Of a stretch of DNA of 64,000 nucleotides, positions 13,701-48,300 are shown in pieces. The first letter of the stretch is position 1, and every line of letters starts with the position of its first letter. The stretch spans positions 23,888,871-23,952,870 of the forward strand of contig NC_092676.1 of NCBI RefSeq assembly GCF_964355755.1, read 5' to 3'. This DNA is from Antedon mediterranea. Its lineage: Eukaryota > Animalia > Echinodermata. Below the pieces are notes generated by a model, which saw only the letters and a program-made list of their open reading frames with translations, was not told the DNA's origin and did not search any database. Made by a program: the position numbers and the translations under genes.

Positions 13701-14781
13701 TACTTTATCTTTAGACTTATGTTTTGATTTCTTGTGTTTACCCTTTTTGTGTTTATGTTTATGCCTGTGTTTCTTTTTCTTTTTATCACTACTCTTTGAT
13801 TGTTTTTCTTCTAGCTTTTCTTTCACTACCGTTTTATCTTGTTGAATTTCAACATCGCTTAAACTCGAAGCAGTTATTTCGCCTTCTTCGGGTACATCGC
13901 GCCACGGCAAAACCTGCTGGTTCTCCGTTGATTCCTCTTCTGAAGATGATCCCAAGTTGTCAACCTCTTCATCTGTTTTTGATTCGATCACCTGACTTGA
14001 AGTATGATCAGAAAGATCCTTACTAAATATTTTAATTTGTATTGGTTTTTTTTCTGAATTTTTTTCTTTTCCATTACTCTGCTTATTATTGGTTTCATCT
14101 TTGTCATCATCAGCCGGAATGACATTGTTTTTCTCACAGTGTTTCATTTTCCTCATACTCTCCTTCATTTCTTTAGCAATTCTGTTTTGAATAATGGCAC
14201 TAAACATAGACTTTTCCTTTCCATGTTGATTATTTGTGTCTTTTTTATCTTTTGACATGGAATGATCTTTTGTTTTTACAGTACTTGCACTGTAACCTTT
14301 TTCTTTATTGTCTGCAGTTTCATTCTGTGGATTTCTGTAAAGAAAAGTATCAACATCACAGTAACAATATTATAAATTTAAATGAGGAATTGTCAATAGT
14401 CAATACATTGTCATTACAATACAAATAATAATATTCATGTAAAAAAAAGTTATGCAGTATTTTAGGCCTATTATGCCTGTCAAAGGGTAGACTTATTTTA
14501 GTTAACAGACCTCTACTTTACCTTACTACTAGGCCTATCAATTGCTTTTGTTTTCTGGCTCCACTACCTAGACCTAACTTTATTTTTTTGCTGGCTGCTG
14601 TGTCTGGTTCTGGCCCTACACTTACTACAAATATAGCTTAAAAGAGCCTACACTAACTGCAAGTAGGCCTAGGCCTAGGTAGGCCTACTCTAGATAGTTA
14701 CTACCTTTGTTTTTCTTTTTCAATTGCCTGCATTTTTTGAAGTGCAAAATTCATCAGTGCATCTTGAACATTTGAGTCCAT
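7680..14781 (-). CDS. SON: Protein SON (RS domain, G-patch, dsRBD), ~1022 aa; exons 14781-14705, 14334-12629, 12250-12063, 11563-11171, 10990-10880, 10595-10473, 8666-8519, 8107-7920, 7814-7680
   Basis: Nine exons join in frame (3069 nt). Motifs IDKAKLLEIAKANA, FPVSSGSQHRKKE, PGQFTGSTGVQIL, G-patch MLQRMGWRQGEGLGKNKEG and dsRBD KHPVSALMEICNKRKW...NKKQAKAQAATVALQKMGL are diagnostic of SON. Confidence 0.96.
9265..9332. repeat. 19-bp minisatellite, 3-4 copies (GGGAACGTCCCGCATATC)
   Basis: Direct tandem copies in a SON intron; resembles a transposon subterminal repeat. Confidence 0.7.
12500..12610 (-). mobile_element. tRNA(Gly-TCC-like)-derived SINE head
   Basis: A box TAGCTTGGTGG, TTCCAA loop and B box GGTTCAATCC on the minus strand; acceptor stem does not pair. 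Confidence 0.65.
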
Positions 14782-15087
14782 TTTCTCTGTTCTTTAATTA
14801 GAGGAACATGCACAAAAGATGAGATTCTAGCCTATGATGCTAGACTGCATACTCGAACTACATTTACATTCGCACAAAAACCAAAGCGCCCTCAAAATTA
14901 ACTTTGAAGCATGTTTGTCACTCCACCAGCCAGAGAACGCTTGTGTCAAGCTAGCCAACAATAAGCCAGCCAACAATAAGCCAGCCCACTTTTATTTTTT
15001 CCAGCCAACAATAACTATGAAACGCCGTTTGTGCATTCTTTACATTTTCATTGTTACTTATGGCTTTTATGATATTAGGAATTAAAT

Positions 15088-18000
15088 ATTTGTGAGAAAA
15101 ACGGCGGATTGTTCCTGGGATTCACTTGGTGGGATTATACTAGGGTACCCCCTTAGTCGTCCAGTATAAGTTAGAGTGGGACCACTGGTCCCGTTTACTC
15201 AGCCCTCATCACTAAAATTTGAGTGTAACTCAATTACGATTTTTAAAATATAGTTAAATTTGAAACTGTATTTGTGAGAAAATGGCGGATTGTTCCTGGG
15301 AGTCACTTGGTGGGATTATACTAGGGTACCCCCTTAGTCGTCCAGTATAAGTTAGAGTGCGACCACTGGTCCTGTTTACTCAGCCCTCATCTTAAAAATT
15401 TGAGTGTAACTCAATTACAATTTTTAAAATATAGTTAAATTTGAAACTGTATTCGTGAGAAAATGGCGGATTGTTCCTGGGAGTCACTTGGTGGGATTAT
15501 ACTAGGGTACCTCCTTAGTCGTACAGTATAAGTTAGAGTGGGACCACTGGTACCGTTTACTCAGCCCTCACCTTTTAAATTTGAGTGTAACTCATTTACG
15601 ATTTAAAAAATATAGTGAAATTTGATACTGTATTTATGAGAAAATGGCGGATTGTTCCTGGGAGTCACTTGGTGGGATTATACTAGGGTACCTCCTTAGT
15701 TGTCCAGTATAAGTTAGAGTGGGACCACTGGTCCCGTTTACTCAGCCCTCATCTTTAAAATTTGAGTGTAACTCATTTACGATTTTTAAAATATAGTGAA
15801 ATTTGATACTGTATTTGTGAGAAAACAGCGGATTGTTCCTGAGAGTCACTTGGTAGGATTATACTAGGGTACCCCCTTAGTCGTCCAGTATAAGTTAGAG
15901 TGGGACCACTGGTCCCGTTTACTCAGCCCTCATCTTTTAAATTTGAGTGTAACTCATTTACGATTTTTAAAATATAGTGAAATTTGAAACTGTATTTGTG
16001 AGAAAACGGCGGATTGTTCCATAGAGTCACTTGGTGGGATTATACTAGGGTGCATCCTTAGTCGTCGAGTATAAGTTAGAGTGGGACCACTGGTCCCGTT
16101 TACTCAGTCCTCATCTTTTAAATTTGAGTGTAACTCATTTACGATTTTAAAAATATAGTGAAATTAGATACTGTATTTGTGAGAAAACGGCGGATTGTTC
16201 CTGGGAGTCACATGGTGGGATTATACTAAGGTACGTCCTTAGTCGTCCAGTATAAGTTAGAGTGCGACCACTGGTTCCGTTTACTCAGTCCTCATCTTTT
16301 AAATTTGAGTGTAACTCAATTACGGTAAAAAAATTTTAAAATATAGTGAAAATTGATACTGTATTTGTGAGAAAATGGCGGATTGTTCCTGGGAGTCACT
16401 TGGTGGGATTATACTAGGGTACCTCCTTAGTTGTCCAGTAGAAGTTAGAGTGGGACCACTGGTCCCGTTTACTCAGCCTTCATCTTTTAAATATGAATGT
16501 AACTCATTTACGATTTAAAAAATATAGTGAAATTAGATACTGTATTTGTGAGAAAACGGCGGATTGTTCCTGGGAGTCACATGGTGGGATTATACTAAGG
16601 TACGTCCTTAGCCGTCCAGTATAAGTTAGAGTGCGACCATTGGTTCCGTTTACTCAGCCCTCATCTTTTAAATTTGAGTGTAACTCAATTACGGTAAAAA
16701 ATTTTTAAAATATAGTGAAAATTGATACTGTATTTGTGAGAAAATGGCGGATTGTTCCTGGGAGTCACTTGGTGGGATTATACTAGGGTACCTCCTTAGT
16801 TGTCCAGTAGAAGTTAGAGTGGGACCACTGGTCCCGTTTACTCAGCCCTCATCTTTTAAATATGAATGTAACTCATTTACGATTTAAAAAATATAGTGAA
16901 ATTTGATACTGTATTTGTGAGAAAATGGCGGATTGTTCATGGGAGTCACTTGGTGGGATTATACTAGGGTACCTCCTTAGTTGTCCAGTATAAGTTAGAG
17001 TGGGACCACTGGTCCCGTTTACTCAGCCCTCATCTTTAAAATTTGAGTGTAACTCATTTACGATTTTTAAAATATAGTGAAATTTGATACTGTATTTGTG
17101 AGAAAACGGCGGATTGTTCCTGAGAGTCACTTGGTGGGATTATACTAGGGTACCCCCTTAGTCGTCCAGTATAAGTTAGAGTGGGACCACTGGTCCCGTT
17201 TACTCAGCCCTCATCTTTTAAATTTGAGTGTAACTCATTTACGATTTTTAAAATATAGTGAAATTTGATACTGTATTTGTGAGAAAACGGCGGATTGTTC
17301 CTGAGAGTCACTTGGTGGGATTGTACTAGGGTGCATCCTTAGTCGTCCAGTATAAGTTAGAGTGGGACCACTTGTCCTGTTTACTCAGCCCTCATCTTTT
17401 AAATTTGAGTGTAACTCATTTACGATTTTAAAAATATAGTGAAATTAGATACTGTATTTGTGAGAAAACGGCGGATTGTTCCTGGGAGTCACATGGTGGG
17501 ATTATACTAAGGTACGTCCTTAGTCGTCCAGTATAAGTTAGAGTGCGACCACTGGTTCCATTTACTCAGCCCTCATCTTTTAAATTTGAGTGTAACTCAA
17601 TTACGGTAAAAAAATTTAAAATATAGTGAAAATTGATACTGTATTTGTGAGAAAATGGCGGATTGTTCCTAGGAGTCACTTGGTGGGATTATACTAGGGT
17701 ACCTCCTTAGTTGTCCAGTAGAAGTTAGAGTGGGACCACTGGTCCCGTTTACTCAGCCCTCATCTTTTAAATATGAATGTAACTCATTTACGATTTAAAA
17801 AATATAGTGAAATTTGATACTGTATTTGTGAGAAAATGGCGGATTGTTCCTGGGAGTCACATGGTGGGATTATACTAAGGTAGGTCCTTAGTCGTCCAGT
17901 ATAAGTTAGAGTGCGACCACTGGTTCCGTTTACTCAGTCCTCATCTTTTAAATTTGAGTGTAACTCAATTACGGTAAAAAAATTTTAAAATATAGTGAAA

Positions 18001-20560
18001 ATTGATACTGTATTTGTGAGAAAATGGTGGATTGTTCCTGGGAGTCACTTGGTGGGATTATACTAGGGTACCTCCTTAGTTGTCCAGTAGAAGTTAGAGT
18101 GGGACCACTGGTCCCGTTTACTCAGCCTTCATCTTTTAAATATGAATGTAACTCATTTACGATTTAAAAAATATAGTGAAATTAGATACTGTATTTGTGA
18201 GAAAACGGCGGATTGTTCCTGGGAGTCACATGGTGGGATTATACTAAGGTACGTCCTTAGCCGTCCAGTATAAGTTAGAGTGCGACCACTGGTTCCGTTT
18301 ACTCAGCCCTCATCTTTTAAATTTGAGTGTAACTCAATTACGGTAAAAAAATTTTAAAATATAGTGAAAATTGATACTGTATTTGTGAGAAAATGGCGGA
18401 TTGTTCCTGGGAGTCACTTGGTGGGATTATACTAGGGTACCTCCTTAGTTGTCCAGTAGAAGTTAGAGTGGGACCACTGGTCCCGTTTACTCAGCCCTCA
18501 TCTTTTAAATATGAATGTAACTCATTTACGATTTAAAAAATATAGTGAAATTTGATACTGTATTTGTGAGAAAATGGCGGATTGTTCATGGGAGTCACTT
18601 GGTGGGATTATACTAGGGTGCATCCTTAGTCGTCGAGTATAAGTTAGAGTGGGACCACTGGTCCCGTTTACTCAGCCCTCATCTTTTAAATTTGAGTGTA
18701 ACTCATTTACGATTTTAAAAATATAGTGAAATTAGATACTGTATTTGTGAGAAAACGGCGGATTGTTCCTGGGAGTCACTTGGTGGGATTATACTAAGGT
18801 ACGTCCTTAGTCGTCCAGTATAAGTTAGAGTGCGACCACTGGTTCCGTTTACTCAGTCCTCATCTTTTAAATTTGAGTGTAACTCAATTACGGTAAAAAA
18901 ATTTTAAAATATAGTGAAAATTGATACTGTATTTGTGAGAAAATGGCGGATTGTTCCTGGGAGTCACTTGGTGGGATTATACTAGGGTACCTCCTTAGTT
19001 GTCCAGTAGAAGTTAGAGTGGGACCACTGGTCCCGTTTACTCAGCCTTCATCTTTTAAATATGAATGTAACTCATTTACGATTTAAAAAATATAGTGAAA
19101 TTAGATACTGTATTTGTGAGAAAACGGCGGATTGTTCCTGGGAGTCACATGGTGGGATTATACTAAGGTACGTCCTTAGCCGTCCAGTATAAGTTAGAGT
19201 GCGACCACTGGTTCCGTTTACTCAGCCCTCATCTTTTAAATTTGAGTGTAACTCAATTACGGTAAAAAAAATTTAAAATATAGTGAAAATTGATACTGTA
19301 TTTGTGAGAAAATGGCGGATTGTTCCTGGGAGTCACTTGGTGGGATTATACTAGGGTACCTCCTTAGTTGTCCAGTAGAAGTTAGAGTGGGACCACTGGT
19401 CCCGTTTACTCAGCCCTCATCTTTTAAATATGAATGTAACTCATTTACGATTTAAAAAATATAGTGAAATTTGATACTGTATTTGTGAGAAAATGGCGGA
19501 TTGTTCATGGGAGTCACTTGGTGGGATTATACTAGGGTACCTCCTTAGTTGTCCAGTATAAGTTAGAGTGGGACCACTGGTCCCGTTTACTCAGCCCTCA
19601 TCTTTAAAATTTGAGTGTAACTCATTTACGATTTTTAAAATATAGTGAAATTTGATACTGTATTTGTGAGAAAACGGCGGATTGTTCCTGAGAGTCACTT
19701 GGTGGGATTATACTAGGGTACCCCCTTAGTCGTCCAGTATAAGTTAGAGTGGGACCACTGGTCCCGTTTACTCAGCCCTCATCTTTTAAATTTGAGTGTA
19801 ACTCATTTACGATTTTTAAAATATAGTGAAATTTGATACTGTATTTGTGAGAAAACGGCGGATTGTTCCTGAGAGTCACTTGGTGGGATTATACTAGGGT
19901 GCATCCTTAGTCGTCCAGTATAAGTTAGAGTGGGACCACTTGTCCTGTTTACTCAGCCCTCATCTTTTAAATTTGAGTGTAACTCATTTACGATTTTAAA
20001 AATATAGTGAAATTAGATACTGTATTTGTGAGAAAACGGCGGATTGTTCCTGGGAGTCACATGGTGGGATTATACTAAGGTACGTCCTTAGTCGTCCAGT
20101 ATAAGTTAGAGTGCGACCACTGGTTCCATTTACTCAGCCCTCATCTTTTAAATTTGAGTGTAACTCAATTACGGTAAAAAAATTTAAAATATAGTGAAAA
20201 TTGATACTGTATTTGTGAGAAAATGGCGGATTGTTCCTAGGAGTCACTTGGTGGGATTATACTAGGGTACCTCCTTAGTTCTCCAGTAGAAGTTAGAGTT
20301 GGACCACTGGTCCCGTTTACTCAGCCCTCATCTTTAACGTTTGAGTGTAACTCAATTACGATTAATATTTTAAAATATAGTGAAATTTGATACTGTATTT
20401 GTGAGAAAATGGCGGATTGTTCCCGAGAGTCACTTGGTGGGATTATACTAGCGTACCTCCTTAGTTGTCCAGTTTAAGTTAGAGTGGGACCACTGGTCCC
20501 GTTTACTCAGCCCTTATCTTTAAAATTTGAGTGTAACTCAATTACGATTAATATTTTAAA
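15088..20560 (+). repeat. 181-bp satellite, left arm of foldback A (~30 copies)
   Basis: Tandem 181-187 bp units containing the palindromes GGGACCACTGGTCCC and AGGGTACC. Confidence 0.97.
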
Positions 20561-23500
20561 GATGAGGGCTGAGTAAACGGGACCAGTGGTCCCACTCTAA
20601 CTTATACAGGATGACTAAAGAGGTACTCTAGTATAATCCCACCAAGTGACTCTCAGGAACAATACGCCGTTTTCTCACAAATACAGTATCAAATTTCACT
20701 ATATTTTAAAAATCGTAAATGAGTTACACTCAAATTTTAAAGATGAGGGCTGAGTAAACGGGACCAGTGGTCCCACTCTAACTTATACTGGACGACTAAG
20801 GGTGTACCCTAGTATAATCCCACCAAGTGACTCTCAGGAACAATCCGCCGTTTTCTCACAAATACAGTTTCAAATTTCACTATATTTTAAAAATCGTAAA
20901 TGAGTTACACTCAAATTTTAAAGATGAGGGCTGAGTAAACGGGACCAGTGGTCCCACTCTAACTTATACTGGAAAACTAAGAGGGTACCTTAGTATAATC
21001 CCACCAAGTGACTCCCAGGAACAATCCGCCATTTTCTCACAAATACAGTATCAAATTTCACTATATTTTAAAAATTTTATCGTAATTGAGTTACACTCAA
21101 ATTTAAAAGATGAGGGCTTAGTAAACGGGACCAGTGGTCCCACTCTAACTTATACTGGACGACTAGGGAGGCACCGTAGTATAATCCCACCAAGTGACTC
21201 TCAGGAACAATCCGCCGTTTTCTCACAAATACAGTATCAAATTTCACTATATTTTAAAATATTAATCGTAATTGAGTTACACTCAAACGTTAAAGATGAG
21301 GGCTGAGTAAACCGGACCAGTGGTCCCACTCTAACTGATACTGGACGACTAAGGGGGTAACCTAGTATAATCCCACTAAGTGACTCCCAGGAACAATCCG
21401 CCATTTTCTCACAAATACAGTATCAAATTTCACTATATTTTAAAATATTAATCGTAATTGAGTTACACTCAAACGTTAAAGATGAGGGCTGAGTAAACGG
21501 GACCAGTGGTCCCACTCTAACTTATACTGGACAACTGAGGAGGTACCCTAGTATAATCCCACAAAGTGACTCCCAGGAACAATCCGCCATTTTCTCACAA
21601 ATACAGTATCAATTTTCACTATATTTTAAAATTTTTTATCGTAATTGAGTTACACTCAAATTTAAAAGATGAGGGCTGAGTAAACGAAACCAGTGGTCGC
21701 ACTCTAACTTATACTGGACAACTAAGGACGTACCTTAGTATAATCCCACCATGTGACTCCCAGGAACAATCCGCCGTTTTCTCACAAATACAGTATCTAA
21801 TTTCACTATATTTTTAAAATCGTAATTGAGTTACACTCAAATGTTAAAGATGAGGGCTGAGTAAACGGGACCAGTAGTCCCACTCTAACTTATACTGGAC
21901 AACTAAGGAGGTACCCTAGTATAATCCCACCAAGTGACTCTCAGGAAAAATCCGCCGTTTTCTCACAAATACAGTATCACATTTCACTATATTTTAAAGA
22001 TCATAAATGAGTTAAACTCAAATTTTAAAGATGAGGGCTGAGTAAACGGGACCAGTGGTCCCACTCTAATTTATACTGGACAACTAAGGAGGTACCCTAG
22101 TATAATCCCACCAAGTGACTCCCAGGAACAATCCGCCATTTTCTCACAAATACAGTATCAAATTTCACTATATTTTTTTAATCGTAAATGAGTTACACTC
22201 AAATTTAAAAGATGAGGGCTGAGTAAACAGTACCAGTGGTCCCACTCTAACTTATACTGTACGAGTAAGGAGGTACCCTAGTATAATCCCACCAAGTGAC
22301 TCTCAGGAACAATCCGCCGTTTTCTCACAAATACAGTTTCAAATTTCACTATATTTTAAAAATCGTAAATGAGTTACACTCAAATTTTAAAGATGAGGGC
22401 TGAGTAAACGGGACTAGTGGTCCCACTCTAACTTATACTGGACGACTAAGGGGGTACCCTAGTATAATCCCACCAAGTGACTCCCAGGAACAATCCGCCA
22501 TTTTTCACAAATACAGTATCAAATTTCACTATATTTTAAAAATCGTAAATGAGTTACACTCAAATTTTAAAGATGAGGGCTGAGTAAACCGGACCAGTGG
22601 TCCCACTCTAACTTATACTGGACGACTAAGGGGGTAACCTAGTATAATCCCACCAAGTGACTCCCAGGAACAATCCGCCATTTTTACACAAATACAGTAT
22701 CAAATTTCACTATATTTTAAAATATTAATCGTAATTGAGTTACACTCAAATGTTAAAGATGAGGGCTGAGTAAACGGGACCAGTGGTCCCACTCTAACTT
22801 ATACAGGATGACTAAAGAGGTACTCTAGTATAATCCCACCAAGTGACTCTCAGGAACAATACGCCGTTTTCTCACAAATACAGTATCAAATTTCACTATA
22901 TTTTAAAAATCGTAAATGAGTTACACTCAAATTTTAAAGATGAGGGCTGAGTAAACGGGACCAGTGGTCCCACTCTAACTTATACTGGACGACTAAGGGT
23001 GTACCCTAGTATAATCCCACCAAGTGACTCTCAGGAACAATCCGCCGTTTTCTCACAAATACAGTTTCAAATTTCACTATATTTTAAAAATCGTAAATGA
23101 GTTACACTCAAATTTTAAAGATGAGGGCTGAGTAAACGGGACCAGTAGTCCCACTCTAACTTATACTGGACAACTAAGAGGGTACCCTAGTATAATCCCA
23201 CCAAGTGACTCCCAGGAACAATCCGCCATTTTCTCACAAATACAGTATCAAATTTCACTATATTTTAAAAATTTTATCGTAATTGAGTTACACTCAAATT
23301 TAAAAGATGAGGGCTGAGTAAACGGGACCAGTGGTCGCACTCTAACTTATACTGGACGACTAAGGACGTACCTTAGTATAACCCCACCATGTGACTCCGA
23401 GGAACAATCCGCCGTTTTCTTACAAATACAGTATCAAATTTCACTATATTTTTAAAATCGTAAATGAGTTACACTCAAATTTAAAAGATGAGGGCTTAGT

Positions 23501-26500
23501 AAACGGGACCAGTGGTCCCACTCTAACTTATACTGGAAAACTAAGAGGGTACCTTAGTATAATCCCACCAAGTGACTCCCAGGAACAATCCGCCATTTTC
23601 TCACAAATACAGTATCAAATTTCACTATATTTTAAAAATTTTATCGTAATTGAGTTACACTCAAATTTAAAAGATGAGGGCTTAGTAAACGGGACCAGTG
23701 GTCCCACTCTAACTTATACTGGACGACTAGGGAGGCACCGTAGTATAATCCCACCAAGTGACTCTCAGGAACAATCCGCCGTTTTCTCACAAATACAGTA
23801 TCAAATTTCACTATATTTTAAAATATTAATCGTAATTGAGTTACACTCAAACGTTAAAGATGAGGGCTGAGTAAACCGGACCAGTGGTCCCACTCTAACT
23901 GATACTGGACGACTAAGGGGGTAACCTAGTATAATCCCACTAAGTGACTCCCAGGAACAATCCGCCATTTTCTCACAAATACAGTATCAAATTTCACTAT
24001 ATTTTAAAATATTAATCGTAATTGAGTTACACTCAAACGTTAAAGATGAGGGCTGAGTAAACGGGACCAGTGGTCCCACTCTAACTTATACTGGACAACT
24101 GAGGAGGTACCCTAGTATAATCCCACAAAGTGACTCCCAGGAACAATCCGCCATTTTCTCACAAATACAGTATCAATTTTCACTATATTTTAAAATTTTT
24201 TATCGTAATTGAGTTACACTCAAATTTAAAAGATGAGGGCTGAGTAAACGAAACCAGTGGTCGCACTCTAACTTATACTGGACAACTAAGGACGTACCTT
24301 AGTATAATCCCACCATGTGACTCCCAGGAACAATCCGCCGTTTTCTCACAAATACAGTATCTAATTTCACTATATTTTTAAAATCGTAATTGAGTTACAC
24401 TCAAATGTTAAAGATGAGGGCTGAGTAAACGGGACCAGTAGTCCCACTCTAACTTATACTGGACAACTAAGGAGGTACCCTAGTATAATCCCACCAAGTG
24501 ACTCTCAGGAAAAATCCGCCGTTTTCTCACAAATACAGTATCACATTTCACTATATTTTAAAGATCATAAATGAGTTAAACTCAAATTTTAAAGATGAGG
24601 GCTGAGTAAACGGGACCAGTGGTCCCACTCTAATTTATACTGGACAACTAAGGAGGTACCCTAGTATAATCCCACCAAGTGACTCCCAGGAACAATCCGC
24701 CATTTTCTCACAAATACAGTATCAAATTTCACTATATTTTTTTAATCGTAAATGAGTTACACTCAAATTTAAAAGATGAGGGCTGAGTAAACAGTACCAG
24801 TGGTCCCACTCTAACTTATACTGTACGAGTAAGGAGGTACCCTAGTATAATCCCACCAAGTGACTCTCAGGAACAATCCGCCGTTTTCTCACAAATACAG
24901 TTTCAAATTTCACTATATTTTAAAAATCGTAAATGAGTTACACTCAAATTTTAAAGATGAGGGCTGAGTAAACGGGACTAGTGGTCCCACTCTAACTTAT
25001 ACTGGACGACTAAGGGGGTACCCTAGTATAATCCCACCAAGTGACTCCCAGGAACAATCCGCCATTTTTCACAAATACAGTATCAAATTTCACTATATTT
25101 TAAAAATCGTAAATGAGTTACACTCAAATTTTAAAGATGAGGGCTGAGTAAACCGGACCAGTGGTCCCACTCTAACTTATACTGGACGACTAAGGGGGTA
25201 ACCTAGTATAATCCCACCAAGTGACTCCCAGGAACAATCCGCCATTTTTACACAAATACAGTATCAAATTTCACTATATTTTAAAATATTAATCGTAATT
25301 GAGTTACACTCAAATGTTAAAGATGAGGGCTGAGTAAACGGGACCAGTGGTCCCACTCTAACTTATACAGGATGACTAAAGAGGTACTCTAGTATAATCC
25401 CACCAAGTGACTCTCAGGAACAATACGCCGTTTTCTCACAAATACAGTATCAAATTTCACTATATTTTAAAAATCGTAAATGAGTTACACTCAAATTTTA
25501 AAGATGAGGGCTGAGTAAACGGGACCAGTGGTCCCACTCTAACTTATACTGGACGACTAAGGGTGTACCCTAGTATAATCCCACCAAGTGACTCTCAGGA
25601 ACAATCCGCCGTTTTCTCACAAATACAGTTTCAAATTTCACTATATTTTAAAAATCGTAAATGAGTTACACTCAAATTTTAAAGATGAGGGCTGAGTAAA
25701 CGGGACCAGTAGTCCCACTCTAACTTATACTGGACAACTAAGAGGGTACCCTAGTATAATCCCACCAAGTGACTCCCAGGAACAATCCGCCATTTTCTCA
25801 CAAATACAGTATCAAATTTCACTATATTTTAAAAATTTTATCGTAATTGAGTTACACTCAAATTTAAAAGATGAGGGCTGAGTAAACGGGACCAGTGGTC
25901 GCACTCTAACTTATACTGGACGACTAAGGACGTACCTTAGTATAACCCCACCATGTGACTCCGAGGAACAATCCGCCGTTTTCTTACAAATACAGTATCA
26001 AATTTCACTATATTTTTAAAATCGTAAATGAGTTACACTCAAATTTAAAAGATGAGGGCTTAGTAAACGGGACCAGTGGTCCCACTCTAACTTATACTGG
26101 ACGACTAGGGAGGCACCGTAGTATAATCCCACCAAGTGACTCTCAGGAACAATCCGCCGTTTTCTCACAAATACAGTATCAAATTTCACTATATTTTAAA
26201 ATATTAATCGTAATTGAGTTACACTCAAACGTTAAAGATGAGGGCTGAGTAAACCGGACCAGTGGTCCCACTCTAACTGATACTGGACGACTAAGGGGGT
26301 AACCTAGTATAATCCCACTAAGTGACTCCCAGGAACAATCCGCCATTTTCTCACAAATACAGTATCAAATTTCACTATATTTTAAAATATTAATCGTAAT
26401 TGAGTTACACTCAAACGTTAAAGATGAGGGCTGAGTAAACGGGACCAGTGGTCCAACTCTAACTTATACTGGACAACTGAGGAGGTACCCTAGTATAATC

Positions 26501-35200: not shown

Positions 35201-35879
35201 GATTTTGTTAGATTTACTGTATACAAGAGATCGAGTCGATGGATTTTGAAAATGTGTTATTCTTTTGTTCCTAATTACCCTATTGATTTGTATCCGTTTG
35301 CTGTTTAAATTTATACTTTTAAGAACGCATCGTTTATGATGAACGTGTGCCGTTGTAAAAATAAAAATATTCCATATCTTTTTATGTTTGATATGTATTG
35401 TAGGGGCCATCATGAGACATGCTTTGGCTTCTATTGAGGGTCCCAGTTCTTCTTAACAGAATAAATGTGCAGTGAATGAATAATTTGATAAATGAGGACG
35501 TGTGTTTTAACATCGATCTATTCAGACCGTAATACTCTTCCAGAAATGATATGTTGCTATAATAGGCCTATGACAAATTTCCATTACATTAATAATTCAA
35601 TTAAGATTTGAAATGTGTCAGAAATACTAAAGAAATCCAGTAATCTTATTGATTAATAATTATTTATACCATTTCTGATGAACGAACAGAAAACTAAACT
35701 TGCAGCCAATCAAAAAGCTGCTGTACTGTATAAGTAGGGAATTTTAAGTAGGAGTTGTTTTAAATGTCATTGGTCTCGGCTAATCAGTTATTGCCATTTG
35801 ACTATGATAGGCATCTTTATTACCAAACAATATTAAAATGTAATGATTTCCTTCACTTTTTACAACCTAGTTTGTGTTT

Positions 35880-38800
35880 TAAAATGTCAATTTTGGATAA
35901 ATTTACAGATTTTACTATTTAAACTGCGTAAACTTAATGCTAACTTTAAAAAAACACCCACAAACATCATCCAAACAACTTAATATTGATTATACCACTA
36001 CAAGAACTATAAAAGAGGACAATTTATGAAATAATTTCATTGAAATAGCTCTAGGTTTGAATTTTTAGGGTAAAAGATGTCAATTTTGGATAAATTTACA
36101 GATTTTGCCATGTAAACTGTGCAAACTTTAAAAAAACACCCCACAAACATCATCCAAACCACTTAATATTGAGTATACCACTACTAGAACTATAAAAAAG
36201 GACAATTTATGAAATAATTTTATTGAAATAGCTCTAGGTTTGAATTTTTAGGGTAAAAAATGTCAATTTTGGATAAATTTACAGATTTTACCATGTAAAC
36301 TGCGTAAACTTAATGCAAACTTTTAAAAAACACCCACAAACATCATCCAAACAACTTAATATTGATTATACCACTACTAGAACTATAAAAGAGGACAATT
36401 TATGAAATAATTTTATTGAAATAGCTCTGGTTTGAATTTTTAGGGTAAAAAATGTCAATTTTGGATAAATTTACAGATTTTGCCATGTAAACTGCGTAAA
36501 CTTAATGCTAACTTAACAAAAACACCCCACAAACATCATTCAAACAACTTAATATTGATTATATCACTACTAGAACTGTAAAAGAAGAGAATTTTTGAAA
36601 TCAATTTATTGAAATAGCTCTAAGTTTGACTTTTTAGGGTGAAAAATGTCAATTTTGGATAAATTTACAGATTTTACCATGTAAACTGCGTAAACTTAAT
36701 GCTAACTTAACAAAAACACCCCACAAACATCATCCAAACAACTTAATATTGATTATACCACTACTAGAACTATAAAAGAGGACAATTTATGAAATCAATT
36801 TATTGAAATAGCTCTAAGTTTGACTTTTTAGGGTGAAAAATGTCAATTTTGGATAAATTTACAGATTTTACCATTTAAACAGCGTAAACTTAATGCAAAC
36901 TTTAAAAAAACACCCACAAACATCATCCAAACCACTTAATATTGATTATACCACTACAAGAACTATAAAAGAGGACAATTTATGAAATAATTTTATTGAA
37001 ATAGCTCTAGGTTTGAATTTTTAGGGTAAAAGATGTCAATTTTGGATAAATTTACAGATTTTGCCATGTAAACTGTGCAAACTTTAAAAAAACACCCCAC
37101 AAACATCATCCAAACCACTTAATATTGAGTATACCACTACTAGAACTATAAAAGAGGACAATTTATGAAATAATTTTATTGAAATAGCTCTAGGTTTGAA
37201 TTTTTAGGGTAAAAAATGTCAATTTTGGATAAATTTACAGATTTTACCATGTAAACTGCGTAAACTTAATGCAAACTTTTAAAAAACACCCACAAACATC
37301 ATCCAAACAACTTAATATTGATTATACCACTACTAGAACTATAAAAGAGGACAATTTATGAAATAATTTTATTGAAATAGCTCTGGTTTGAATTTTTAGG
37401 GTAAAAAATGTCAATTTTGGATAAATTTACAGATTTTGCCATGTAAACTGCATAAACTTAATGCTAACTTAACAAAAACACCCCACAAACATCATTCAAA
37501 CAACTTAATATTGATTATATCACTACTAGAACTGTAAAAAAAGAGAATTTTTGAAATCAATTTATTGAAATAGCTCTAAGTTTGACTTTTTAGGGTGAAA
37601 AATGTCAATTTTGGATAAATTTACAGATTTTACCATGTAAACTGCGTAAACTTAATGCTAACTTAACAAAAACACCCCACAAACATCATCCAAACAACTT
37701 AATATTGATTATACCACTACTAGAACTATAAAAGAAGACAATTTATGAAATCAATTTATTGAAATAGCTCTAAGTTTGACTTTTTAGGGTGAAAAATGTA
37801 AATTTTGGATAAATTTACAGATTTTACCATTTAAACAGCGTAAACTTAATGCAAACTTTAAAAAAACACCCACAAACATCATCCAAACCACTTAATATTG
37901 ATTATACCACTACAAGAACTATAAAAGAGGACAATTTATGAAATAATTTTATTGAAATAGCTCTAGGTTTGAATTTTTAGGGTAAAAGATGTCAATTTTG
38001 GATAAATTTACAGATTTTGCCATGTAAACTGTGCAAACTTTAAAAAAACACCCCACAAACATCATCCAAACCACTTAATATTGAGTATACCACTACTAGA
38101 ACTATAAAAGAGGACAATTTATGAAATAATTTTATTGAAATAGCTCTAGGTTTGAATTTTTAGGGTAAAAAATGTCAATTTTGGATAAATTTACAGATTT
38201 TACCATGTAAACTGCGTAAACTTAATGCAAACTTTTAAAAAACACCCACAAACATCATCCAAACAACTTAATATTGATTATACCACTACTAGAACTATAA
38301 AAGAGGACAATTTATGAAATAATTTTATTGAAATAGCTCTGGTTTGAATTTTTAGGGTAAAAAATGTCAATTTTGGATAAATTTACAGATTTTGCCATGT
38401 AAACTGCGTAAACTTAATGCTAACTTAACAAAAACACCCCACAAACATCATTCAAACAACTTAATATTGATTATATCACTACTAGAACTGTAAAAAAAGA
38501 GAATTTTTGAAATCAATTTATTGAAATAGCTCTGAAGTTTGACTTTTTAGGGTGAAAAATGTCAATTTTGGATAAATTTACAGATTTTACCATTTAAACT
38601 GCGTAAACTTAATGCAAACTTTAAAAAAACACCCACAAACATCATCCAAACAACTTAATATTGATTATACCACTACAAGAACTATAAAAGAGGACAATTT
38701 ATGAAATAATTTCATTGAAATAGCTCTAGGTTTGATTTTTTAGGGTGAAAAATGTAAACTTTGGATAAATTGACAGATTTTACCATGTAAACTGTGCAAA

Positions 38801-39750
38801 CTTTAAAAAAAACACCCCACAAACATCATCCAAACAACTTAATATTGATTATACCACTACTAGAACTATAAAAGAGGACAATTTATGAAATCATTTTATT
38901 AAAATAGTTCTAGGTATAAATTGACACATTTTACCATGTAAACTGTGCAAACTTTTAAAAAACACCCCACAAACATCATCCAAACCACTTAATATTGATT
39001 ATATCATTATTAGAACTATAAAAGAGGACAATTTATGAAATAATTTTATTGAAATGGCTCTAAGATTTTTTTAGGAGTGAAAAATGTCAATTTTGGATAA
39101 TTGACAGATTTTACCATGTAAACTGCGTAAACTTAATTAAAAAATACCCCACAAACATTATTCAAACAATTGAATACTGATTATACCACTACTAGAACTA
39201 TAAAAGAAGACAATTTATGAAATCATTTTATTAAAATAGTTCTAGGTTTGACATTTTTGGGGTGATTATGAAATAATTTTATTGAAATAGCTCTAGGAAT
39301 AAATTGACACATTTTACCATGTAAACTGTGCAAACTTTTAAAAAACACCCCACAAACATCATCCAAACCACTTTGATTATATCATTATTAGAACCATAAA
39401 AAGAGGACAATTTATGAAATAATTTTATTGAAATGGCTCTAAGATTTTTTTAGGAGTGAAAAATGTCAATTTTGGATAATTGACAGATTTTACCATCTAA
39501 ACTGCGTAAACTTAATTAAAAAATACCCCACAAACATCATTCAAACAATTGAATACTGATTATACCACTACTAGAAATATAAAAGAAGACAATTTATAAA
39601 ATCATTTTATTATTAAATAGCTCTAGGTTTGACATTTTTGGGGTAAAAAACCACTTAATATTGATTATCACTAAAACTATAAAAGAAGACAACTTATGAA
39701 ATGATTTTATTGAAATAGGTCAAAGTTTGACCTTTTGGATAAATTGAACT
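35880..39750. repeat. ~193-bp satellite (~20 copies) with 956-bp pentamer higher-order repeat
   Basis: Units of 183-194 bp; the AAGATGTC/short variant recurs at 36077, 37033 and 37989; array decays after ~38900. Confidence 0.95.
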
Positions 39751-40625
39751 TTACAATGCAAAAAAGGCCATCTGCAATCATCCTTCAAACCACTTATTAT
39801 ATTAAGACAATATTAATATTTGAAGCAGATATAAAATGATGCATGCTCAGTTATCAAATGACTAGGCCTACACTGATCATATTTGATGGTATATAGACAA
39901 TTAATATTAATTATTGTTGAGGTAGTTCAAACTATGATTACACTGATCATATCCAAAATTGTGATATAGAATATTATTAATAGTTATGGAAAAGATAGAT
40001 ATTAAAAAACTAAACAGATCATATCCAACAGTTTGATATAGATTATTAATATTAATTAATGATGATGCAGATATTAAAAGATTTTTGCTCAGTTATCAAT
40101 TTATGACTACACTGATCATATCCAACTATGTGATATAGATTATTAATAATAATTATTGATGAAATAGATATTGAAAGATGCATGCTCAGTTATCAAATTA
40201 TGACTACACTAATCATATCCAACATTGTGATATAGATTATTAATAATAATTATTGATGAGGTAGATATTAAAAGATGCATGCTCAGTTATCAAACTATGA
40301 CTACACTGATCATATCCAACATTGTGATATAGGATATTATTAATAGTTATTGATAAGGTAGATATTAAAAAACCAAACAGATCATATCCAACAGTGTAAT
40401 ATAGATTATTAATATTAATTATTAATGAGGTAGATATTCTTCTTCTTTATTGTATCAAACAAAAACAATTTCAATACAAAAGGTAGCCAAGGTATAGCCA
40501 AAGCTAATCAAGCTTGGTACCTTTTATCTTAAACTAACTTAAGCTACGAAATTAACAAATGAATAACAGAACTTAAAAGAAAATAAAAATTTGATAACGT
40601 CAAAAACCAAACAAAAAATGTTGAA

Positions 40626-41719
40626 TCTATATTATAAGTGAGAGAGTTTGTCTGTTTGTCTGTTTGTTCGTTATACAAAATTTTGTTACTGCACATAATC
40701 TTACATATGGGGTATCAAAATGACCGCAATTGTACCGGGAATGTTCTAAGCTATATTTCAACATCATCCGCCACCTAGGATCCAAGTTAGGGACCAAAAT
40801 GTGGTCAAAACCCCCACTTTCGATGTTTGTTCGTTATAAAAATTTCTGTGTCTGCACGTAACCATACGTATGGGGTATCAAAATGATGGCAATTGTACCC
40901 GGAAGGTTTTAAACTACATTTTAAAAAATTCCCCCGACTCCTGGGGTTTTTGTGGAATGGGTGGGGGGGGGGGGGGTGGTTGTGTGGTGGCTTGTGATGT
41001 CATTTTTGCTAGGGCTCGGGGTTGTAGGCTATCGAATTGTAAAATTATACTACAAAAGTTTTACAGTATTTGAATTATCCTCAGCAAGGCGTTTGGGGAA
41101 ATATAGATATAGCTATACATATTTCATTCATTAAACAATATGACACCTATTCAATTACACATTAACTGCCACTGAGGGATTATGGGTTGGGAGTGATAAT
41201 AATATAAATTGTACTGGAACCGGCTTCAACAGATCACCCAGTGTATCTGGCGTGTGTTTTTTGTAGAGGGAGGAGGAGCGAAAATACTAGCGTAATGAAG
41301 TAGCCTATATGATTGGATTGTACTAGGAAAAGTTACTAAATTTGAACTGTCCAGGGGAGGAGTTAAGGTTTGTTGATGGTGGCTGGGGTGGTGAAAGGAG
41401 AAAGAAGGCTGGGTGCCCGCAGTATCTAAATTACAAATTTTAATTATCAGCCAATATGACACCTATTCATTTACACAATTTACAACGTACTACAACCATT
41501 ATTAGACCCATCGTAGTTATGAATACTCCTCTCAATTCGAAGCTTAGGTTGAATTGAATTTGTCCATCACTGGGAAGATTTTGTTTTTAAGAAAGAGTAT
41601 GGGGTGTTGTTGAGGGGTCGATGTTGGTGAGTATAGACAGATACTGGCGTCGGGTGTTATGTACTGAGAAGGCTGTAAACTAATTTTGAAACCCGCCCTG
41701 GGGCGGGTATAATTGCTAG
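40626..41719 (+). mobile_element. Non-autonomous Helitron, copy 1 (internally deleted)
   Basis: 5' TCTATATTATA, GTTT/GTCT microsatellite, 3' hairpin ACCCGCCC-TG-GGGCGGGT, terminal CTAG; preceded by A. Confidence 0.9.
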
Positions 41720-43174
41720 TCTATATTATAAGTGAGAGAGTTTGTCTGTTTGTTTGTTTGTCTGTTTGTTCGTTATACAAAATTTTGTTACTGCACATAA
41801 TCTTACATATGGGGTATCAAAATGACCGCAATTGTACCGGGAATGTTCTAAGCTATATTTCAACATCATCCGCCACCTAGGATCCAAGTTAGGGACCAAA
41901 ATGTGGTCAAAACCCCCACTTTCGATGTTTGTTCGTTATAAAAATTTCTGTGTCTGCACGTAACCATACGTATGGGGTATCAAAATGATGGCAATTGTAC
42001 CCGGAAGGTTTTAAACTACATTTAAAAAAATTCCCCCGACTCCTGGGGTTTTTGTGGAATGGGTGGGGGGGGGGGGGTGGTTGTGTGGTGGTTTGTGATG
42101 TCATTTTTGCTAGGGCTCGGGGTTGTAGGCTATCGAATTGTAAAATTATACTACAAAAGTTTTACAGTATTTGAATTATCCTCAGCAAGGCGTTTGGGGA
42201 AATATAGATATAGATATACATATTTTATTCATTAAACAATATGACACCTATTCAATTACACATTTAGCAAAGTACTTTAACCATATCCAGCTATTTATTG
42301 GTCTCTTGGATTGCCTCATTACAGACATCCATACCTGTGTGAACATACACATGTTGTTTACTGTTACTGTGTTCAACTACATCACCAATCCTCCAAGGAA
42401 AAAAACGTACATTGTGGGAGAGTGGGGTTGGGAGATAGGGTTTGGGAGTTTGGTTTCAGGAGAGAGTGGGGATTTTGCTTACACCAGAATTGTGGTTGGA
42501 AACTTTTAAAGTATTTAATCATCCCTGGGAAGCGGATGGGAGTTTGGGGTGGGGATGTACATGTAGGCCTATCACCATGACCGAAACTGTATTTGGAATG
42601 TTTTAAACTACATTTGAAAACTGCCACTGAGGGATTATGGGTTGGGAGTGATAATAATATAAATTGTACTGGAACCGGCTTCAACAGATCACCCAGTGTA
42701 TCTGGGGTGTGTTTTTTGTAGGGGGAGGAGGAGCGAAAATACTAGCGTAATGAAGTAGCCTATATGATTGGATTGTACTAGGAAAAGTTACTAAATTTGA
42801 ACTGTCCAGAGGAGGAGTTAAGGTTTGTTGATAGTGGCTGGGGTGGTGAAAGGAGAAAGAAGGCTGGGTGCCCGCAGTATCTAAATTACAAATTTTAATT
42901 ATCAGCCAATATGACACCTATTCATTTACACAATTTACAACGTACTACAACCATTATTAGACCCATCGTAGTTATGAATACTCCTCTCAATTCGAAGCTT
43001 AGGTTGAATTGAATTTGTCCATCACTGGGAAGATTTTGTTTTTAAGAAAGAGTATGGGGTGTTATTGAGGGGTGGATGTTGGTGAGTATAGACAGATACT
43101 GGCGTCGGGTGTTATGTACTGAGAAGGCTGTAAACTAATTTTGAAACCCGCCCTGGGGCGGGTATAATTGCTAG
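41720..43174 (+). mobile_element. Non-autonomous Helitron, copy 2
   Basis: Same termini and hairpin; exact CTAG|TC head-to-tail junction; followed by T; no TSD. Confidence 0.9.
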
Positions 43175-45319
43175 TAATAAATAAATAACATAACATAAAG
43201 TGCTGTATGTACTATGCTGTAATAAACAAAACCATATCAGTTCAATAGATAATATCTGATGAATTCACAATATATAAAACATTGTAAATTATAGATTATT
43301 CTTTTATATACTTAAATAAAAGTAATTCTAAAGATGTATGCTCAGTTATCAAATTATGACTACAATGATCATATCCAACAATGTGATATAAATTATTAAT
43401 AATAATTATTGATGAAATAGATATTGAAAGATGCGTGCTCAGTTATCAAATTATGACTACACTGATCATATCCAACATTGTGATATAGGATATTATTAAT
43501 AGTCATTGATAAGGTAGATATTAAAAGATGCATGCTCAGTTATCATATTATGACTACACTGATCATATTGAACAATGCAATATAGATTATTAATATTAAT
43601 TATTGATGAGGTAGATATTAAAAGATGCATGCTCAGTTATCAAATTCTGACTACACTGATCATATCCAACAATGTGATATAGATTATTAATAATAATTAT
43701 TGAAAGGTAGATATTAAAAGATGCGTGCTCAGTTATCAAATTATGACTACACTGATCATATCGAACAATGTGATATAGATTATTAATATTAATTATTGAT
43801 GAGGTAGATATTAAAAGATGCGTGCTCAGTTATCAAATTCTGACTACACTGATCATTATCGAACAATGTGATATAAGATATTAATAATAATTATTGATGA
43901 GGTAGATATTAAAAGATGCGTGTTCAGTTATCAAATTCTGACTACACTGATCATATCCAACGTGATATAATATATTATTAATAGTTATTGATAAGGTATA
44001 TATTAAAAAACTAAACAGATCATATCCAACAATGTGATATAGGTTATTAATATTAATTAATGATGATGTAGATATTAAAAGATTATTGCTCAGTTATCAG
44101 ATTATGACTACACTGATCATAACCAACAATGTGATATAGATTATTAATAATAATTATTGATGAAATAGATATTGAAAGATGGGTGCTCAGTTATAAAATT
44201 ATGACTACACTGATCATATCCAACATTGTGATATAGGATATTATTAATAGTTATTGATAAGGTATATTAAAAGATGCGTGCTGTTATTAAATTATGACTA
44301 CACTGATCATATCGAACAATGTGATATAGATTATTAATATTAATTATTGATGAGGTAGATATTAAAAGATGCGTGCTCAGTTATCAAATTATGACTACAA
44401 TGATCATATCCAACAATGTGATATAAATTATTAATAATAATTATTGATGAAGGAAATAGATATTGAAAGATGTGTGCTCAGTTATCAAATTATGACTACA
44501 CTAATCATATCCAACATTGTGATATAGGATATTATTAATAGTCATTGATAAGGTATATATTAAAAGATGCGTGCTCAGTTATCAAATTCTGACTACACTG
44601 ATCATATCGAACAATGTGATATATTATGATATTAATATTAATTATTGATGAGGTAGATATTAAAAGATGCGTGCTCAGTTATCAAATTATGACTAACACT
44701 GATCATATCCTACATTGTGATATAGGACATTATTAATAGTTATTGATAAGGTAGTTATTAAAAGATGTGTGCTCAGTTATCAAATTTTGACTACAAAGAT
44801 CATATCCAACATTGTGATGTAGATTTATATTAATATTAATTATTGATGATGTAGATATTATAAGATGCATGCTAAGTTATCAAATTGTTACTACACGGAT
44901 CATATTTGATATTGTGATTGATGATATATTCATATAAAGAGTGTACAATACTCACAGTATTTTTTAATCCATCCACATGAAGAAGAGACACAAGAAGAGT
45001 TGTTTGAAATTGTGAAGCCTCACAACCTTACTAATTGTGATGACATTTAATATAATATTACAGCCATACACAAACAGTAAGGTAGTTAGGGTCACTACAA
45101 TCTATTAAAATAATTAACATTAATTTAACTGGAAACATTGTTAATTATCAGTTTGAGTTTGACTTTTGTCTCTTTTGTTGTAGAATTGAATCTCTGTTTA
45201 TCCATTGCTTTCAACCTGAAAATAAACAGGCCTAATACCTTGGCATTAGCAATGAAATCAACTTACACACTGATGAATCTTAATACTCCTACCTACCTAT
45301 CTAATATTTTATATAGATA

Positions 45320-46075
45320 GGCTGTCTATGACCCCCCAGCCTATCCCTAGCTAGGCCTATGCCTCTCTAGACCATTCTGCTGGCTAGCTAGCAAGGCCCT
45401 AGGCCTAGTCCTATAATTAATAGCACAGGTCTCATATAGATAGGCCTAGCTAGAGTGTTTAGACTGAGCCTGGTTATATGCCTATTTATTTAACTAGGAC
45501 TAGGCAGGCCTAATCAGCCTAAACTAAGGCCTAATAAACTAGTCTAGGCCCTAACTAGAATACATAGAGCTAGCTAGTTAGGCAGCCTAGGCCTAGCTAC
45601 TTATTAGCTAGTAAGTAGGCCTAGCTAGCTAGCCTACCAGTTCCCTAGTAGGGCCTAACCAGGTGGGCCTACTAGCCTAGCCTACTACTCTAGCTAGGCT
45701 AGATCTTTCTATTTCTAGGCCTAGCTAGACAAGGCTAGCCAGTAGGCCTAGTAGTACTAGGCCTACCTAGTTTTTAGGCCTAAACTATTAGCTAGAGTAG
45801 AGAGATGCTAGCCTAACTAGGCCTAGGCCCTAGCTAGCTAGCTAGGCCTAGACTAGGCTAGCCTATAGGCTATAGGCCTGCCCTCTACTAGCTAGGCCTA
45901 ATCTGCCCTTTTTGGAGGCTAAAATATTGTCTGAAATAAGCTATGACCTACAAATATAGCTTAACTATCTGTTTAAGGGTGACACTGATGATGGGTAATC
46001 AATAAAATATGCTTCTAAATCTACCTTTTTGGCTTGCAATCATAATATCCAGTCTAGCCTAGGCCTAGGCCTGCA
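45320..46075. repeat. TAGGCC/CTAG-rich low-complexity tract (similar tracts at 14460-14700 and 46650-46860)
   Basis: Dense AGGCCT, CTAG and TAGCTA short palindromes. Confidence 0.8.
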
Positions 46076-46572
46076 CGGATCAGGTAGCGAAACGAACGAA
46101 GTGAGAGCAGAGAGCTGAGGAGGAGGAGGCCTCCTCCTCGGCCTAGGTTTCAGGCAGAAAAGAACATCTTGAGTTTGTGTAATTATATATCTATTTATAG
46201 TTATTTTAAAATATATCCCTAACATTTAAAAAATTATATATATTACTGACAATTAATTCTAAGAATGATACTCTATCTAATGATAAAATCAATTAAATGT
46301 ATTTTCCGTACGAAATTAATTATATACGAGGATGGCATAAGTGATAGTTCTCTGTTATCAAAAAACAACTACATACTATACCTGGGCTTATTGTTGGCTG
46401 GCTTATTGTTGGCTAGCTTGACACAAGCCAGAGAACAGCATGTTGTACAAAAACACCACCACCACGTCTCTCTCACACTCACAGTACTGTGTTGGTTGTG
46501 ATAGGCCTAAATAATTTTTTATTTTAAAGGTACTTTCAGCAATTTTATTCTGTAGCTAGCCCTACCATAATA

Positions 46573-46611
46573 ATGGCCAGTATCTGAATGAATGGTCACA
46601 GTGGCAATTGA
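46573..46611 (+). promoter_or_regulatory. Candidate AMD1 leader uORFs: MASI* immediately followed by MNGHSGN*
   Basis: ATGGCCAGTATCTGA ATGAATGGTCACAGTGGCAATTGA, then a possible donor GTGAG at 46616 and a TAGGCC tract. Membership in the AMD1 mRNA is inferred. Confidence 0.4.
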
Positions 46612-48049
46612 TTTAGTGAGGCTAAGCCTTTTACAGTTGATTGAATAAAAAACTAGGCCTAGGCCTAGGCCCTAGGCTAGCCTAGCTAGGGCCAGGCCTA
46701 GGCTAGGACCTATAGTAGTATAGTAGTAGGCCTAGTACTAGTAGTAGTATGTAGGCCGTGCCCAGCAGGGGAGGCTACTATTTAGTCTAGGCTCAGGCTG
46801 TACGTATGTTGGGATCCGTATGTAGTGGTGTAGTACGAGGCCTAGGACGATTGGTAGGAGGAGGCCAAAACTAGATCGTAGGTCGTTGTGAAATAAGCCA
46901 AGTATTATTTTTTTGTATCGACTTATACCATTATAAAAAGATGGGAAAATAGAGGTGTCCCATTTATTGATTGAGTTTGTTAATGTGTTAAAATACTGCT
47001 GCTTTTGTTTAGTGCATTATGTTTCAGCAACAAAGGGAAAACAACTATGCCCTGCATGCTGTAGAATTAATTTCAGTTTTCAAGTTAATGCAGTATATTA
47101 TGGCTCTTTATTTCTATATAATTTTTACAGATTTATAGATACAGAAAGTATATAAAGAAAGTTTTTATTCCAGTTACAAATAAAAAATATAATTTACCTA
47201 ACGATAACACAGTAGTACATTTAATAAAGATGACAGTAGTACATTTAATAAGATCTATCACATACTGATTATTAGGTAATCAGTAAAACAAATAAACATT
47301 ATAATTTTGTCAATGAATCTGTACCATTTTGTTCCCAGAAAACACAGTGTTTGACATTGCGTGTTTTTAGGTTTGGTTTTTCTAAAACGTTTTAAACACG
47401 TTTTTAAACTTTTCTGTGTAGAAATACATGTTCTAATTGAACAACGTTTGCATCAAAACGTTATAATAGCGAATGCAAAACGGAGCTGATAATGTCGCCA
47501 TGAAGAGGATGATTGGTGTGAATACATCGGTAAGCCGTTCGCTGTAGAATGAGTCAAGCATTTGCATAGACAAACCAATTACTTTCCACGCTCTACCCAG
47601 CACCTTCGCACCCTTACATTCCCCTGATATTCCTAGCCCAATATACAATATGCCCAAATAGAACATTACTGATTAGTAAAACATAAACATTCTATAGTAC
47701 AAATATCCTGCTTTACCCCAAAGAACCGAGTTTCCTCAAGCAGTACAGCCTTGTATTTAACTTCTTAACTTACGATCAACATGTCCACCCATTTAAGCTT
47801 AAGTCAAACACTACTGCCAGATACTTATAATTGTTAACAATCTCTACTTCCTTTACTTTAATTAATGTATACTGTCAGACCAATTATGTTTTCGAAAATC
47901 AATCCTTATTTCTTTCTTTTATTTATGTTTAGTGTTTAGTTCAAGAAACTAAAAAATATGATTTATCTACCAATAAGATTTGGCCGATTAGAATGCATTT
48001 GCCAATATTCTTTTACATATTTCACAACATTATAGAGTTTAGGTAATTT

Positions 48050-48260: not shown

Positions 48261-48300
48261 GTTTTTATATATAATAAGTAAGTATACCTACTTATATAGT

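Follow-up and report, generated by a model that had tools for sequence, protein, structure and literature searches.

How did 31.5 kb of repeats come to lie between the start sites of SON and AMD1, and what would they do to the promoter region that these two genes share? The locus lies in a 64,000-nt stretch of the genome of the echinoderm Antedon mediterranea (RefSeq assembly GCF_964355755.1, contig NC_092676.1, positions 23,888,871 to 23,952,870 of the forward strand), which was analyzed at its full length and is called the window hereafter. The original prediction had read it as a compact divergent SON/AMD1 arrangement split by one element with terminal inverted repeats (TIRs). The split arrangement is supported by our analysis; the single element is not, and we hold with high confidence that the insert consists of two nested elements, A and B. 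Our preferred reading, in which we have moderate confidence, is that these gene-less elements represent a young cut-and-paste insertion that was attracted to the region where a shared promoter starts transcription and that is tolerated, its effect being partial.

For evidence from outside the window, two of its stretches were compared with contigs of six public runs. X1 and X3 are DNA contigs coded as one sample of organism A (the species of the window), X5 is a single run from a different sample of organism A, and X7 and X9 are runs of organism B, a close relative. Since a GT-AG skip was found in each of them, X5 and X9 were taken as RNA, although no run is recorded as such. Contigs can drop variants, and a contig end gives only a lower bound for a transcription start site (TSS).

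Two nested elements in one insertion

The insert occupies positions 14939-46428 (31,490 bp), and its 44-bp termini are identical (44/44). Both ends are flanked by the exact 8-mer CAGAGAAC, a target site duplication (TSD) with a chance probability of ~1e-5 by base composition. For a TSD of 9 bp, the two ends would have to be unlike at one base; the end contigs of greatest depth begin at 14939. Within the insert, the 16.2-kb element A carries the 15.3-kb element B in its right end, with the 7-bp duplication GGCTTAT around B. Once B and one 7-mer are taken out, the right end of element A matches its left end at 148/149 positions. We considered and rejected the alternative of one element whose inner end is broken, since A is interrupted by B. 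A Pfam scan of 36 open frames in the window, 31 of them inside the insert, gave no match to a transposase family (four weak matches below the cut-off were disregarded).

Element A measures 16,150 bp, with an outer arm of 149 bp and arms of 5.6 and 10.5 kb in total (Table 1). Each arm has its own recent block duplication of 14 monomers, with identical monomers, and across the arms only the outermost monomers pair (2 differences). Therefore, the arrays grew separately in each arm, probably via unequal exchange. One double monomer of 368 nt inflates the right-arm and between-arm means, which were left unused. Of 5443 left-arm 21-mers, 4021 have an exact match on the opposite strand of the right arm, so the arms can pair. 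The depth of the left end of element A was ~250-500x that of SON exon 2 in X1 and X6, a ratio that is not a copy number, and deep cover with unrelated loose ends at 14934-14939 was observed in 4/4 runs from both organisms. Because this end is deep and has unrelated flanks in organisms A and B, it belongs to a multicopy family. A loose end in X1, before 14945, derives from another copy of this end, in which an 18-nt near-palindrome lies between two copies of a 7-mer and resembles a minimal insertion with a 7-bp duplication.

Element A has the structural traits of a foldback, namely long inverted arms with internal tandem repeats, a TSD together with an empty site, and multiple copies with differing flanks. 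Its TSD of 8 bp, seen at one site, is within the 8-10 bp of Mutator and Mutator-like elements (MULEs), and no MULE DDE transposase was found within the 64-kb window. A TSD of this length is equally compatible with hAT, Merlin, P, and Zisupton. Element A is probably of the Mutator/foldback type.

The 97-bp monomer of element B and the B end have a 28-nt motif in common (23/28). Its flanking GGCTTAT copies, at 31045-51 and 46385-91, form a 7-bp duplication as in P/Galileo elements. Termini of P/Galileo elements read CA...TG; the right end of B reads CA inward, and the left end GA. Neither a THAP nor a P-type transposase was detected by Pfam among the frames of at least 30 aa in the unique regions of B, with partners elsewhere being outside this search. 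B is possibly of the P/Galileo type but, given the lack of such a frame, is not assigned to it. Helitrons start with 5' TC, end with a 3' hairpin and CTAG, and insert between A and T with no duplication. The two tandem copies inside B follow these end rules, no RepHel frame was found in them by the Pfam scan of open frames, and they appear to be non-autonomous and Helitron-like only.

Table 1. Coordinates of the insertion, its component elements, and the flanking genes (window positions)
Feature	Position	Strand	Basis
SON coding region, 9 exons, 1022 aa, open	7680..14781	-	GT-AG model, no internal stop
SON exon 1	14705..14843	-	X5 contig starts at 14843, skips 14335-14704
Left TSD copy, 8 bp CAGAGAAC	14931..14938	+	sequence comparison
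Element A left end: 44-bp terminus with 15-bp repeats (2.6 copies, 14948-14986), then unique arm sequence	14939..15087	+	
Element A left arm: 181-bp tandem array, 29.9 copies	15087..20549	+	
Element A centre: ~26 nt separating the inverted arrays, without a middle domain	20527..20552	.	
Element A right arm: inverted 181-bp array, 56.7 copies	20553..30940	-	
Element A right end, inner part, terminating in the left GGCTTAT copy (31045-31051)	30940..31051	-	
Element B, 15,333 bp, imperfect inverted ends of ~65 bp (83%)	31052..46384	.	flanked on both sides by GGCTTAT
B 97-bp array, ~40 copies	31327..35200	+	
B ~190-bp array	35881..39644	.	
B inverted 97-bp array, broken by ~40440-43330	39809..44905	-	
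Tandem pair of Helitron-like copies, beginning with TC, ending in a GC-rich hairpin and CTAG, and lying between A and T	40626..43174	+	
B CTAG/AGGCCT-rich block with predicted first exon and donor pointing into the element, away from AMD1	45250..46130	-	
Element A right end, outer 44 bp, beginning with the right GGCTTAT copy (46385-91)	46385..46428	-	
Right TSD copy, 8 bp CAGAGAAC	46429..46436	+	sequence comparison
AMD1 distal non-coding exon 1, 5' end approximate	46451..46529	+	donor GT 46530, joined to 49640, organism B X9
High-copy repeat block occupying most of AMD1 intron 1; ends related, inverted; LINE-like (long interspersed nuclear element) fragment	46900..49480	.	
AMD1 proximal 5' exon	49521..49543	+	organism A X5 contig starts 49521, splices 49543 to 49640
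AMD1 coding exons (11), ATG 49702, 337 aa, open	49640..54000	+	Pfam SAM_decarbox E 5.4e-15

An empty haplotype and the start sites of both genes

One X1 contig (649 nt, depth 26.9, + strand) has its letters 1-409 on 14512-14914 and its letters 420-649 on 46430-46662; the two X1 records were taken as one contig since they agree in length, depth, and strand and their letter ranges complement each other. Because this contig covers both flanks, an empty allele exists. An X3 contig of 647 nt, which was compared with the left flank only, departs from the window at the same position. At 14338-14541, both runs carry two equally deep haplotypes, one of them identical to the window (17.3/20.4 in X1 and 160/160.8 in X3). 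Between the window and the empty contig there is a 6-bp indel at 14890 and a difference of ~7 bp at 14915-14931, and at 14786 and 14813 X1 has the letters of the window, from which X3 and organism B differ. The idea that the insertion is polymorphic is borne out by the empty haplotype among the sample's own contigs, and the DNA sample is likely heterozygous for it. For organism B, the bin depth of 34.5 in X7 equals 41.7 x 95/115, as from a contig starting at 46429, and this depth arithmetic alone suggests that the site is empty there.

On the SON side, the distance from the seen 5' end at 14843 is 95 bp to the left terminus of the insert and 244 bp to the 181-bp array. Only intron 1 (14704-14335, in X5) was seen spliced among the 8 SON introns, and the remaining boundaries were chosen by eye. 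The modeled protein includes an RS-rich exon 2 (the RS region), a G-patch (E 2.8e-15), and a dsRBD. On the AMD1 side, the distal exon 1 was derived from an X9 joint (46508>49638) with 25 letters between its two parts, which fit the remainder of the exon to 46529, and ~17 further letters set its 5' end at ~46451. The insert lies ~15-30 bp before this distal 5' end. The gap between the 5' ends of SON and AMD1 in the empty allele comes to ~110-125 bp, a figure that mixes organisms, with the SON end from organism A (X5) and the AMD1 end from organism B (X9). Divergent 5' ends such as these, less than 1 kb apart, are a mark of a bidirectional promoter; a second mark would be shared cis-elements that drive both genes, and in this species X5 gives a different AMD1 5' exon.

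Most distances given in the original prediction proved correct. The left TIR (14939) is 158 bp upstream of the SON ATG at 14781 (- strand), removal of the insert leaves 293 bp from ATG to ATG where ~300 bp had been stated, and both genes read open (1022 aa for SON, 337 aa for AMD1). The right TIR does end 145 bp before the first of the ATGs taken for AMD1 leader upstream open reading frames (uORFs), from 46428 to 46573, but these ATGs are intronic in the one spliced form observed. Likewise, proximity to palindromic satellite is correct for SON and not for AMD1, which is separated by 1.5 kb from the end of the nearest array (at 44905) and by 15.5 kb from that of the palindromic one. As for the AMD1 TSS, by which the prediction was to be refuted, the outcome is mixed: the expected exon is present at ~46451-46529 in the relative (X9), whereas the X5 contig starts at 49521, near ~49300, which had been named as the alternative. 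Finally, targeting of a TSS agrees with the pattern published for Mu and P insertions, which does not in itself fix the superfamily of the element.

The two first exons of AMD1 come from different organisms. The donor GT of the proximal exon (49544-45) reads GG in run X7 of organism B. The X7 contig does not resemble the window upstream of 49505, the region that in organism A is taken up by a high-copy repeat block of 2.6 kb. This difference between the relatives rests on one run each. X5 had no cover at 46409-46638, and absence in contigs was not counted as evidence. The repeat block was delimited by depth and by an opposite-strand joint (46935/49434); a zf-RVT match in it (E 3.6e-5), under the curated cut-off, was used as a hint only. 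A 17-mer ending in ATGG (16/17) occurs near both ends of AMD1 intron 1, at 46560-46576 and 49424-49440, and is perhaps a chance match or a remnant of the intronic repeat.

The ATGs at 46573-46592 (46573..46615, + strand) belong to intron 1 in the spliced form observed in X9 and were rejected as leader uORFs, being intronic in that one form. In the spliced leader, the upstream ATGs are those at 49649 and 49694. The region 49649-49744 (+) holds one uORF of two codons and another of 16 codons that is out of frame and overlaps the AMD1 main start, and these uORFs, rather than those at 46573-46592, are candidates for polyamine control. AMD1 intron 6 (52411-52598, +) appears to be an AT-AC intron with a minor-spliceosome-like 5' end and branch site (judged by the consensus of such introns), and the frame is open only with the intron 6 boundaries modeled in this way.

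Only three CTAG/AGGCCT clusters are present in the 64 kb (14480-14704, 45250-46130, and 46530-46900), at ~25-40x background. The density of CTAG-type motifs per 100 nt is 8.0 in the first intron of SON, 9.2 in that of AMD1, and 13.4 in the B block, against 0.3 in the flanks. These tracts are possibly a promoter-proximal signature of this genome.

Origin of the insertion and its likely effects

Element A inserted with an 8-bp duplication ~95 bp from the seen 5' end of SON and ~15-30 bp from the distal 5' end of AMD1. Its arms, inverted 181-bp arrays that meet at a 26-nt spacer, grew separately. Element B inserted 44 bp inside the right end of A with a 7-bp duplication. According to our preferred reading, both elements would have been mobilized in trans by transposases encoded elsewhere. 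B probably came later than A, as a second insertion beside the same start site. In SON, the start, exon 1, and the CTAG-rich first intron are all retained, and the gene likely continues to fire. The distal exon of AMD1 loses nearly all of its upstream sequence and is likely weakened, although the empty homologue would back AMD1, as would, probably, the 5' exon further downstream (49521-49543), which is included in an AMD1 contig of X5. The position of B within the outer 44 bp of the 16,150-bp element A has a probability of 0.5% if insertion is uniform (a post hoc figure) and, being beside the AMD1 start, suggests a second insertion there.

Published data on Mu and P transposons make such a position plausible. 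Their insertions peak within 50 bp of RNA polymerase II TSSs (PMC7337890; this and the other papers cited here are drawn on in excerpts), and the insertion described here likewise lies tens of bases from the 5' end of a housekeeping gene. Unlike in those data, only one site is at hand, so that a preference is not measurable, and the cargo consists of 31 kb of repeats. In the excerpted maize results, 0/4 promoter insertions of Mu altered expression, and 11/33 insertions near genes lowered it (PMC7337890).

Several points weigh against the preferred reading. Among the pieces listed for X1 and X3 there is no contig that joins an element end to a flank, so that the case for the filled allele is made by three things: the assembly, the duplication, and variants linked to it. 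The other copy of the A end with a 7-mer-flanked insert makes a sequence preference for A ends an equal explanation for the position of B, and B may also have arrived together with A. Continued firing of SON and weakening of AMD1 are predictions, and X5, one run taken as RNA by guess, may not come from a carrier. The Mu data concern short maize elements, as opposed to 31 kb of satellite in the present case (PMC7337890, in part). Moreover, the 49521 exon is not followed by a CTAG-rich intron (0 motifs per 100 nt vs 8-9 at the other two starts) and for this reason may be internal or minor.

Among the competing explanations, the one that survives best is a harmful allele silenced in cis, in which repressive chromatin spreading from the 16-kb inverted satellite would switch both genes off and the allele would persist only in rare heterozygotes. 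The 181-bp array begins just 244 bp from the seen 5' end of SON, the arms of element A can pair (4021/5443 left-arm 21-mers), and the sample appears heterozygous. We nevertheless regard this as unlikely. Both frames are open, though this says only that the allele is young or kept, and the SON contig of X5 has the letters of the window at 14786 and 14813, though it differs from the window at 13954 and 14160 and is for this reason not established as the insertion haplotype. Furthermore, 22/33 Mu insertions near genes went without reduced expression in the excerpted data (PMC7337890).

Distinctly less probable, in our view, is that part of the insert (the ends of A or the CTAG block of B) serves as a replacement promoter half or insulator, with AMD1 gaining a new head-to-head partner. 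The B block (45250-46130), ~320 bp from AMD1 exon 1, is the densest CTAG-type cluster (13.4), and its predicted exon and donor point away from AMD1. However, the CTAG signature derives from two genes only, the 5' end of DONSON lying outside the window, and none of the contigs at the locus shows a transcript that begins in an element end. A motif scan of the ends, run without a control set, returned just loose initiator-like (Inr-like) matches.

A further account, to which we give slightly less credence again, is that the AMD1 start moved ~3 kb downstream, leaving an old promoter that was dispensable and transposon-prone, and that the SON-side half fires a hairpin RNA silencing the family in trans. 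The new AMD1 first exon, whose donor reads GG in the relative, would then lie beside the end of the intronic repeat, and the SON-side promoter half would transcribe the 16-kb, near-spacer-less inverted satellite into an RNA like that of Mu killer. In excerpts of its description, the maize Mu killer is likewise an inverted duplication of a transposon beside a host promoter with a possible hairpin RNA; it differs in being ~4 kb long, with transposase sequence inside and silencing shown (PMC3440606), while for element A such an RNA is a prediction from sequence.

An assembly error that joined satellite from elsewhere into the locus, which would explain why the listed X1 and X3 contigs give the empty form and no junction contig, is very improbable given that the exact 8-bp and 7-bp duplications, the matching ends, and the 148/149 restoration are unlike misjoins, that the 14890 indel and the 14915-14931 difference from the empty contig look like a second haplotype, and that contigs may drop variants.

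Neighboring genes, related elements, and significance

DONSON (1-6144, +) lies tail to tail with SON (7680-14781, -), as its name implies. The closest named relatives of DONSON, with 33-39% identity, are proteins of echinoderms, hemichordates, and amphioxus, which by itself points to a marine invertebrate deuterostome as the likely host, probably an echinoderm. The gene that faces SON in the window is AMD1; in humans it is GART. A 72-bp tandem repeat of 5 copies (7388-7742) overlaps the last codons and the 3' untranslated region of SON. On the 3' side of AMD1 there is a T-box gene (56040-59560, +; Pfam T-box E 1.2e-29), which is Brachyury-like by eye.

Several known elements resemble those described here. 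The TU foldbacks of Strongylocentrotus purpuratus, which Liebermann et al. are said to have described in 1983, reportedly make an 8-bp duplication and carry outer 15-bp tandem repeats. These repeats resemble those of element A at 14948-14986, a likeness by description only. Unlike element A, TU elements reportedly have arms of < 1 kb, many outer repeats, and a middle domain. Tetris of Drosophila virilis is, like element A, non-autonomous, with long inverted arms, each unique in its outer domain and made up further in of a tandem array whose copy number varies; the excerpted source gives TIR-220 repeats, an 8-10 bp duplication, and no transposase (PMC4079207). The two are likened by build alone, since Tetris arms reach at most 1.7 kb and enclose a middle domain (PMC4079207, in part), in contrast to the arms of 5.6/10.5 kb and the 26-nt center of element A. 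The Mutator/Foldback element Tm1 of root-knot nematodes also has composite ends with 13-15 bp repeats and 8-10 bp duplications, and its excerpted description includes an empty-site test by polymerase chain reaction and one copy with a nested element that made a 7-bp duplication (PMC3169594). On the other hand, Tm1 elements are ~1 kb long, have mostly 9-bp duplications, and include a copy with a transposase (PMC3169594, in part).

Element B is closest to Galileo of the P superfamily, for which 7-bp duplications and tandem repeats in or near the ends are described, the end repeats being proposed as additional transposase sites (PMC3573991, in excerpt). It differs from Galileo in its ends of ~65 bp that are 83% alike, in arrays that begin 0.2 and 1.4 kb inside, and in having no transposase/THAP frame. 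A search of metagenome contigs with a 26-nt element-end pattern gave 0 matches. In the open-access literature, we found no paper on echinoderm foldbacks with satellites, none on SON/AMD1 synteny or head-to-head order, and, by titles and abstract starts of the papers listed, no natural insertion like this one in a bidirectional promoter.

Satellite-armed foldbacks, nesting, and insertion beside start sites are already known kinds of event. The apparent shift of the AMD1 first exon between two close relatives, seen in one run each, is the more surprising lead. The locus itself amounts to a natural experiment, in which one individual likely carries the ~120-bp gap in two forms, one intact and the other split by repeats that total 31.5 kb. 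Since single-nucleotide polymorphisms in SON distinguish the alleles, it is usable as an allele-specific test case that bears on how the halves of a divergent promoter behave alone, on the spread of satellite chromatin, and on silencing RNA from a giant inverted repeat.

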